Shown piece by piece: positions 2,327-3,263 of a stretch of DNA of 6,394 bases. The notes beneath the pieces are model-generated. The model worked only from the letters and a program-made list of their open reading frames with translations, made no database searches and was not told the DNA's origin. Within the stretch, counting starts at the first letter, position 1. Each line of letters starts with the position of its first letter. The position numbers were made by a program, and so were the translations under genes. Origin of the DNA: a virus (taxonomy: Duplodnaviria > Heunggongvirae > Uroviricota > Caudoviricetes); IMG/VR virus record IMGVR_UViG_2740892370_000006. One strand, 5' to 3'.

Positions 2327-2410
2327 TTATCCCCAGCGGCAAATCGAATACACCACCAGCGCCACCGCCATCGCAATTCCTACCGTTGTGAATGCTTCAG
2401 GCCAGGTCAT
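2327..2410 (-). CDS. 27-aa hydrophobic micropeptide (predicted single transmembrane helix)
   Basis: My translation [27 protein letters not shown]. The ATG at 2410..2408 overlaps the TGA of the upstream 114-aa gene (ATGA); GGAGG lies 10 nt upstream; TAA at 2329..2327 is just before the terminator hairpin. It is not in the supplied track because it is below the size cutoff. Confidence 0.35.
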
Positions 2411-2751
2411 CGTAAAATATCCTCCACGCTTATCAGTCCGTTCCGCTCCAGATAACTCATCGCCTTATCCGGTAATTTGCAGTCTGGCTTCGCTTTCCTC
2501 AGTTGCCAGGTTAACTGCTTTACCAGCATGGTTAACTCATCGACCAGACGCTGATATCCCACTGGTTTGTATTCATGCAATTTACCGGCTGGCTCTGCTG
2601 CCAGCGATACCAGTGCGATTTCCAGAACAGCAATATCCATCTTATATGTGCGGATGATGTCATGGTCGATTGTGCCCGGTATGCACAGTCTCTGTGTTTC
2701 AATAGTCTCCTCTGCGTGAGCTATTAACTGCTCTCTGGTAATAGTGGTCAT
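2407..2751 (-). CDS. Hypothetical protein, 114 aa, predicted mostly alpha-helical
   Basis: ATG at 2751..2749 overlaps the TGA of the upstream nuclease-like gene (ATGA); SD AAGGAA 7 nt upstream. No motif I can assign. Confidence 0.65.
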
Positions 2752-3263
2752 GCCGCGTTTCCTTCTTTCTTATTAACAATTACACCGTCATATATTTCAT
2801 TAAGGTGCCCTCTCAACTCCATGCGCCTTAATGCAGACAACATGTAATCGCATTCAACCTGCTTATTTCCAGTAAATGGCTTATCGTCAGGATTACCCCA
2901 ACAGCAATTACCCTTGGGCCACCCATGTACTTTCCGTACTCTTCCGTTAACAACGTGAAGTAATCCCCAGCCAGGAGGTAAATCCTCAATTGAAATAATT
3001 CCCGGCTCACTAATAAAGAATCGCCAGTCGCCCATTCCAAGAGACGGATTTTTACGAAAACGCTTTTTTCTATCTGCCAACAAGTCAGCACGAGAACATT
3101 TCGCCTCTATCAGGCATGATGCTGAATTTCTGAATCCCATAGCATCTGGCTGTTCTCCGGTACTGGTTACAGCTATAAAGCGGTCATGAAAACAAACCTT
3201 GAACCCGTTGCGCTTAAGGAACTTGTACGCAATCTGACAGAGTTCGCGGTGTGTTAACGCCAT
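2748..3263 (-). CDS. PD-(D/E)xK nuclease-fold protein (putative), 171 aa
   Basis: Start taken as ATG 3263..3261 ([10 protein letters not shown]...), with SD AAGGAGAG 4-5 nt upstream; the track's upstream Met at 3293 lies inside the preceding gene. Motifs in canonical order: Glu in the first helix ([12 protein letters not shown]), then GEQPDAMGF (PD), then CLIEAKCS (ExK). Confidence 0.65.

Follow-up and report, generated by a model that had tools for sequence, protein, structure and literature searches.

Three ATGA-linked genes of an Escherichia coli lambdoid prophage, encoding a nuclease-fold protein, a helical protein and a putative membrane micropeptide, are probably separately assorting accessory cistrons

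The exo-xis and nin accessory regions of lambdoid phages have been reported to affect lysogeny and the induction of Shiga toxin (Stx) prophages. KdpF and the type I toxins Hok, TisB and DinQ are small proteins built of one hydrophobic helix. Ea22, a product of such an accessory region, shifts lambda and Stx phages toward lysogeny (PMC7093339, PMC10834534). Among nucleases of the PD-(D/E)xK fold, MmcB of Caulobacter is an SOS-induced endonuclease implicated in tolerance to mitomycin C and cisplatin (PMC9578287), and the structure 3dnx represents DUF1052/PF06319, a mainly alphaproteobacterial family, in a census of the fold (PMC3424549). We analysed a stretch of 6,394 nucleotides (nt) from a Caudoviricetes record (IMG/VR IMGVR_UViG_2740892370_000006), hereafter called the window, in which three consecutive genes on the minus strand invite comparison with these systems: an intact, stand-alone gene for a 171-amino acid (aa) PD-(D/E)xK nuclease-fold protein (2748-3263), a gene for a 114-aa all-helical mosaic protein (2407-2751), and a gene for a putative single-pass membrane micropeptide of 27 aa (2327-2410). 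We put the probability at about 70% that this trio consists of three separately assorting accessory cistrons and not of one three-part system.

The three reading frames, and the ATGA start/stop overlaps that join them at 2748-2751 (171/114) and 2407-2410 (114/27), were confirmed from the open reading frame (ORF) list and the sequence as the original prediction had described them. The 171-aa ORF extends from an ATG at 3263 to a stop codon at 2748-2750; an alternative TTG at 3293 would yield 181 aa, and the ATG is preferred because the homologues begin at ATG. A Shine-Dalgarno-like purine run precedes every one of the three starts, that of the micropeptide being a GGAGGA (2420-2425, minus strand) located 9 nt 5' of its ATG, within the last codons of the 114-aa gene. 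The overlaps had been taken to imply fixed stoichiometric co-expression, a reading that was not supported: the same ATGA joins the Ea22-like gene upstream of the trio to its own upstream neighbour (4209-4212); at 78 of 80 related loci it forms the junction 5' of the 114-aa gene, and it is common downstream of distant nuclease homologues as well. Thus, such overlaps are the norm in these regions and do not single out the trio.

Across related phages and genomes, each gene of the trio assorts independently of the other two. When 33 loci carrying a nuclease homologue in other species were surveyed, and partners were sought within 5 kb, neither a 114-like gene nor the peptide was found at any of them (0/33). 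In every one of 80 viral contigs that carry the 114-aa gene, its direct upstream neighbour is not the 171-aa gene but a 121-aa HNH endonuclease gene (PF01844, 28.2 bits), and the 171-aa gene is nearby in only three of the 80. Eight E. coli peptide contexts were sampled over the identity range, and in six of them both the HNH and the 171-aa gene are missing upstream. At least 80% of the trio block is covered in 42 of 5,426 genomes, in some with inserts between the 171-aa and 114-aa genes; at two of our loci (L002 and L003), too, other DNA intervenes between these genes. The direct 171/114 junction is restricted to a small group of prophages of E. coli strains that make Shiga toxin (STEC), and the ~1.2-kb region around the trio is 100% identical to several STEC chromosomes, such as that of E. 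coli 2015C-3163, the annotation of which identifies the host element as a lambdoid prophage. The HNH slot can be seen, for example, at 1925-2287 of L137 (E. coli O103:H2 12009), and also in L004-L083.

The original prediction had favoured a three-gene system of the abortive-infection or superinfection-exclusion type; in its developed form, the peptide and a helical adaptor would control the nuclease, and the overlaps would set the stoichiometry. Several observations speak for such a module and weigh against separate cistrons. Translational coupling spans all three genes, and the block adjoins toxin-antitoxin cassettes. A nuclease gene precedes the 114-aa gene in both arrangements (HNH in 80/80 contigs, PD-(D/E)xK here); nucleases of two folds fill the same slot, and the swap could be read as a functional replacement inside a system. 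Moreover, the succession Ea22 - 171-aa gene - helical/DUF551 gene - peptide recurs in POCJ13 and PhiR5_1, and of the nine phage loci that were located by way of the peptide, three have the 171-aa gene one or two genes 5' of it. Nonetheless, the partners are missing from the nuclease loci of other species, the 171-aa gene seldom accompanies the 114-aa gene, and most sampled peptide contexts lack either nuclease gene. ATGA coupling is generic in such arrays, and frameshifted nuclease alleles persist beside intact peptide genes (YYZ-2008 and L143). A search of PADLOC-DB v2 at E<=1 matched no defence family for the three proteins or for their Ea22-like neighbour. The three-gene block expected to be conserved across prophages was not (co-occurrence 0/33, 3/80 and 3/9, with varying neighbours), and a single three-part system appears very improbable. 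We weigh the repeated order and the shared nuclease slot as coincidences expected in a nuclease-rich gene pool.

Under the reading that we favour, the three cistrons would have been drawn from a highly mosaic pool of genes in lambdoid prophages ('Ea22 / exo-xis / nin'), placed side by side in an STEC prophage lineage by recombination at gene boundaries, and linked by the ATGA overlaps that nearly all genes in such arrays appear to use. The genomic neighbourhoods of Ead/Ea22 (PF13935), DUF551 and EaA of the lambda exo-xis region are the same as those of the trio. In mosaic arrays of this type, adjacency and start/stop overlap are by themselves no sign of a multi-protein system. The interest that remains is modest, and lies in a PD-(D/E)xK family near MmcB and in a widespread, unannotated phage micropeptide gene.

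The catalytic motif of the 171-aa protein, E37...P39-D40...E53-A-K55, is encoded on the minus strand at 3099-3155 (E37 at 3153-3155, P39-D40 at 3144-3149 and E53-A-K55 at 3099-3107), as read from the sequence and the homologue alignments. No variation occurs at E37, D40, E53 or K55 in 27 close (alignment A1) and 20 distant (alignment A3) homologues; in both alignments, the same is true of H5, R58, D60, D64, K67, GMGDWRF, WGL, E137 and R146-R147. An AlphaFold model of the protein (predicted local distance difference test score, pLDDT, 83) has an alpha-beta-beta-beta-alpha-beta core, in which D40 starts strand 2 and ExK lies on strand 3 (strands 41-45 and 48-54). The protein belongs to the PD-(D/E)xK fold, with its catalytic motif fully conserved, in agreement with the restriction-endonuclease-like arrangement noted earlier. 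It is structurally equivalent over the whole domain to 3DNX (SPO1766), and its D40 and ExK align to the D...ExK of 3dnx.

Family searches gave a less direct picture. No Pfam, NCBIfam or PADLOC family matched the 171-aa protein, and its PHROGs matches were to families of unknown function only; a weak match to phrog_5429 ('DNA repair protein') was the first pointer to MmcB. A Foldseek search against viral models returned phage 'MmcB-like DNA repair protein' entries with E values of 2e-7 to 3e-4. PF06319, formerly DUF1052, is now named MmcB-like in Pfam. Its hidden Markov model (HMM) gave no match to the 171-aa protein even at E<=10 and none to ten distant family members (0/10), and matched only two of 20 homologues, with a best E of 0.0048 that was not above the gathering threshold; 11 of the 20 gave sub-threshold Hjc matches. 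Since structural likeness came without an HMM match, we file the protein as a divergent, MmcB-resembling relative and not as a member of PF06319. The 171-aa family differs from the MmcB-like proteins in its extra invariants (H5, E37, GMGDWRF, WGL and a C-terminal RR...G) and in its location, for it is found in accessory regions of phages and plasmids, not at chromosomal SOS loci. Against the archaeal Holliday-junction resolvase Hjc (PF01870) and other minimal PD-(D/E)xK nucleases (NucS, VRR-NUC and type II restriction enzymes), it scores below the family thresholds. The prophage already encodes RusA.

The family is large. A protein search returned 324 relatives, mostly of 160-176 aa and all named 'hypothetical', from Klebsiella, Lelliottia, Cronobacter, Pectobacterium, Serratia, Morganella and Providencia, and a genome scan extended the homologues to Shewanella, Alteromonas, Microbulbifer, Salinicola, Chromohalobacter, Solimonas, a Rhodobiaceae metagenome-assembled genome and Flavobacterium. 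An exhaustive profile search that counted clusters at 50% identity found 3,200 for E<=1e-3 and 2,389 for E<=1e-10. A PD-(D/E)xK family of this size (~2,400 clusters at the stricter threshold), closest to MmcB and without a Pfam match in the tested members, is a fixable annotation gap.

By the favoured reading, the 171-aa protein would be a Mg2+-dependent DNA phosphodiesterase without a fixed partner, its gene would be expressed early from the phage operon, and, during phage replication and recombination, the enzyme would most plausibly process DNA that is damaged or branched. The role of Caulobacter MmcB is carried over here by analogy, as an inference only, and the silence of the PF06319 HMM weighs against it. 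Upstream neighbours of the homologues comprise Ead_Ea22 (seven), NinB (two), C5 and N6/N4 methyltransferases, NA37 and TraV; those downstream comprise DUF551 (two), RusA, a methyltransferase and TraC. The alternative offered in the original prediction, a recombination accessory module of the nin region, fits the nuclease better, in view of the MmcB-like relatives and the NinB, RusA and methyltransferase neighbours. The enzyme might instead be an offensive or counter-defence one, directed at host or competitor DNA or at a signalling nucleotide. It is encoded by an early-operon accessory gene that is patchy in phages and that in one case lies amid conjugative-transfer genes; the DNA methyltransferase neighbours (L096, L098, L102, L117, L118 and L124) recall restriction-modification, and restriction enzymes are among the fold matches. 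However, the best structural relatives are MmcB-like, the 171-aa core carries no added DNA-recognition domain, methyltransferases are adjacent at only six of the 33 loci, and no defence or anti-defence model was matched, so we regard an offensive role as unlikely. In Pantoea sp. BAV 3049 (L115, 4412-8083), a conjugative transfer operon has a nuclease homologue between its TraV and TraC genes. This position is roughly that of TraR on plasmid F, and TraR is related to lambda Orf73 of the exo-xis region.

In the three inspected RefSeq E. coli records (L001-L003), the NCBI Prokaryotic Genome Annotation Pipeline (PGAP) gives codons 1-60 of the nuclease gene (3085-3263) the label of a 'frameshifted' hypothetical protein, with no annotation on the remainder (2752-3084). 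The ORF of the window is intact and colinear with full-length homologues from dozens of species, and the mislabelling of a conserved gene as a frameshifted pseudogene in these records is another gap that can readily be fixed. True 2-nt-deletion alleles do exist, in YYZ-2008 and L143, where the frame is split at residues 52-54, and the VT1-Sakai match is likewise 2 nt shorter. Public data hold both forms, with 1,363 members in the intact cluster and 645 in the cluster of the shortened product.

The 114-aa protein is limited to prophages of Escherichia, Shigella and Salmonella, and is mosaic. It is made up of a variable N-terminal helical hairpin, an 'IALxSLAAEP(A/V)' hinge and a conserved 45-aa C-terminal module (ELTMLVKQL...; alignment A2), and the same module closes proteins of 140, 167, 171 and 192 aa. 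Its AlphaFold (AF2) model (pLDDT 73) is all-helical, as the original prediction had it, with helices at 6-26, 30-52, 64-87 and 95-103: the N-terminal hairpin (6-26 and 30-52) is confident, the linker after it is disordered, and a helix of heptad-like character (64-87) comes next, then two short ones. No Pfam (including PF13935), NCBIfam or PADLOC model matched; PHROGs matches were partial, of unknown function, and overlapped with the Ea22-type families phrog_60, 5117 and 8171. Searches of the PDB returned designed coiled coils (by sequence) or generic helical hairpins (by fold) only. As these searches were uninformative, 'helical protein' is the correct label and nothing further can be claimed, although the protein may be viewed as a coiled-coil-like modular protein of the Ea22 type. 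It has PHROG segments in common with the Ea22-like protein next to it, and an 'ALASLEAEP' hinge in common with DUF551 proteins, whereas its C-terminal module is unrelated, by sequence searches, to the solved C-terminal domain of Ea22.

The recurrence of this module next to the micropeptide raises the question of whether the true unit is the pair, for instance a membrane tether, with the nuclease as a bystander. Sampled alleles ending in ...ERxGLISxEDxLR (114, 140 and 167 aa) are all followed by the peptide frame through the same ATGA, the frame is intact in 73 of 80 close loci, and a 171-aa Ea22-type protein of L140, ending in ...KRNGLINEEDILR, stands directly 5' of a peptide DNA match. On the other hand, a 192-aa protein with a diverged module (...LLRNGLVSAEGVLR) precedes a DUF551 gene and not the peptide, and the peptide also follows unrelated C-termini, namely DUF551 (...PEPPQEVNQ), 933W L0139, Av-05 gp123 and SJ46 gp092. 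A functional pair is therefore doubtful, if clearly less so than the three-part system. The peptide start codon is lost in two of four P0184-type loci. The 171-aa protein of L140 was at one point taken for the nuclease and then rejected as such; it is of the Ea22 type, and its equal length is a coincidence.

The 27-aa product had been described as essentially one hydrophobic helix, and this was upheld: its 19-residue Kyte-Doolittle mean is 2.11 (1.85-2.41 across all homologues), and the hydrophobic core is present in every homologue. The family follows the pattern M[TSN]WP[ED]A...G.......YSICRWG, of which the two ends, M-x-W-P-[ED]-A and CRWG, are retained among homologues. Length is 27 codons in nine of ten compared sequences and 24 in SJ46, down to 59% identity. 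The pairwise ratio of nonsynonymous to synonymous change (pN/pS) is 0.43 in the peptide frame, the other two frames giving 0.96 and 1.39, and differences at codon positions 1/2/3 number 205/165/392. Conservation of this frame, the lack of which had been set beforehand as a possible refutation, was found: among 80 viral contigs whose 114-aa gene is 97-99% identical, 73 have an intact ORF. With in-frame purifying selection, a kept length and start, and a ribosome-binding site, the 27-aa ORF is very likely a real protein-coding gene, to judge from its pattern of sequence change.

Several findings weigh on the other side. Dead alleles occur, with ATG changed to ATA in L128 and L130, TGG to TAG in POCJ13 and one nucleotide deleted in 5/80 loci, so the gene is dispensable. 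A literature search on peptide strings found no trace of it, and it is absent from the ribosome profiling (Ribo-seq) supplements of E. coli O157 Sakai, although early genes of prophages are normally silent in lysogens and uninduced cultures. Together with the missing PGAP annotation at ten inspected RefSeq loci, these points could suggest that the ORF is non-functional as a protein, being a conserved spacer or translational-coupling element with an incidentally hydrophobic frame. Such an element, however, would not be expected to show constraint in the peptide frame only, with third-position changes about twice the others, nor to keep its length, hydrophobicity and both ends beside a strong Shine-Dalgarno sequence while the flanks diverge exactly at the stop; we consider it distinctly unlikely. 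A modelling paper on exo-xis proteins mentions neither the nuclease nor a membrane peptide.

The peptide gene is widespread. By tblastn, it was found in 94 phage records at 59-100% identity, including 933W, VT2-Sakai, Stx1 phages, P1-like phages (SJ46 and vB_EcoM-813R1) and virulent rV5-like phages (Av-05 and TH18). Its DNA is present in 1,634 of 5,426 complete E. coli genomes (~30%), at 3,110 places, up to seven per genome, with 163 on plasmids. PGAP annotates it at none of ten inspected RefSeq loci, that of the window included, although entries from a few submitters do contain it, as a 'hypothetical' or 'prophage' protein of 27 aa. A gene carried by about 30% of complete genomes and by Stx phages such as 933W offers a concrete and cheap small-protein target within the poorly understood exo-xis/nin accessory regions.

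At nine inspected loci, the peptide start overlaps, through ATGA (ATGATG in YYZ-2008), the stop codon of differing upstream genes, among them 933W L0139, DUF551, Ea22, EaA-like, Av-05 gp123 and SJ46 gp092. In most inspected phage loci, the start is preceded by AGGAGGTGAATCAATGA, with AGGAGG 7-10 nt upstream. Downstream of the stop, at least four unrelated contexts were found among the 80 close loci, which places a mosaic boundary exactly at the stop codon; at several loci, the next gene begins a few nucleotides past it. The ORF would thus be a portable 'Shine-Dalgarno + ORF' cassette for a one-helix inner-membrane peptide, translated by coupling from ribosomes terminating on whichever gene lies upstream. 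Its single flanking charges, E5 and R25, suggest a periplasmic N-terminus and a cytoplasmic CRWG end. AGGAGGTGAATCAATGA, which contains the Shine-Dalgarno sequence and the ATGA, also encodes the final residues (...EVNQ*) of several upstream genes of the DUF551, Ea22 and 933W L0139 types, so that the cassette constrains the C-termini of its upstream neighbours; examples lie near position 2485-2504 in L085, L087, L089, L091 and L092.

No Pfam, NCBIfam, PHROGs or PADLOC model matched the peptide; a KdpF match was sub-threshold and compositional (E 0.024). KdpF and the type I toxins resemble it in size (24-27 aa) and in their one hydrophobic helix, and hok/sok loci are its direct neighbours in nin-type contexts. 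Unlike the toxins, which have their own promoter and an antisense RNA, the peptide is coupled within an operon, and a test for a type I toxin found no family HMM match and no Rfam RNA family in the window. We offer only tentatively the wider proposal that this is a previously undescribed micropeptide with an inner-membrane function, whose cassette moves among lambdoid, P1-like and rV5-like phages; its functions might then include, for example, exclusion of superinfecting DNA, modulation of a host transporter or of membrane potential, or anchoring of the preceding Ea22/DUF551-type protein.

The possibility that the peptide is a DUF551 C-terminus was considered and rejected. It shares 90%-identity clusters (those of P0241 and P0256) with 121- and 185-aa DUF551 proteins that do not contain its sequence, and the name 'DUF551 domain-containing protein' on some NCBI 27-mer entries looks like a propagated mislabel. 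In lambda (L126, 31008-30925, minus strand), an unrelated 27-codon hydrophobic ORF, MTTTECIFLAAGFIFCVLMLADMGLVQ, has an ATGA overlap with the orf63 stop; it lies out of frame within the annotated orf61, and may be due to chance.

The window is placed between replication genes (a helix-turn-helix O-like gene and a DnaC-like gene) and DUF968-RusA-antiterminator (Q-like) genes, and therefore represents a nin-type region. The minus-strand order is DUF1627, DUF977, a hypothetical gene, DUF7167, a 58-aa ORF, the Ead/Ea22-like gene and the trio, followed by convergent ParD/ParE. The Ead/Ea22-like gene (3265-4212, minus strand; 315 aa), identified by family scans and record annotation, is located upstream of the 171-aa gene, and its 3' end travels together with that gene in Stx phages. 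The parD/parE toxin-antitoxin cassette (1640-2202, plus strand; record annotation) lies outside the trio and serves as context only. Between the micropeptide stop and the ParE stop (2202), folding revealed a hairpin of 12 bp (2283-2316; z-scores -3.4 and -3.9), GC-rich and flanked on both strands by T-runs, likely a bidirectional terminator, which a simple terminator scan overlooked because its loop is 10 nt. The block had been placed at the end of the operon against a parDE terminator; a likely terminator does lie there, but beyond parDE genes of the same strand as the trio resume (DUF968, RusA and Q-like), so the trio ends a segment and not necessarily its transcription unit.

In nin-type contexts, a toxin-antitoxin cassette lies immediately 3' of the micropeptide gene, and hok/sok occupies in other prophages the slot held here by parDE: hok/sok follows the gene in 933W, L002, L127-L130, L136 and L138-L142, and parDE follows it in the window and L137. 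The stretches concerned include 1640-2326 of the window and 2582-2950 of L084. In exo-xis contexts, the gene is followed by DUF4222-xis-int and not by a toxin-antitoxin cassette. The toxin-antitoxin insertions suggest a recombination hot spot at the micropeptide stop codon.

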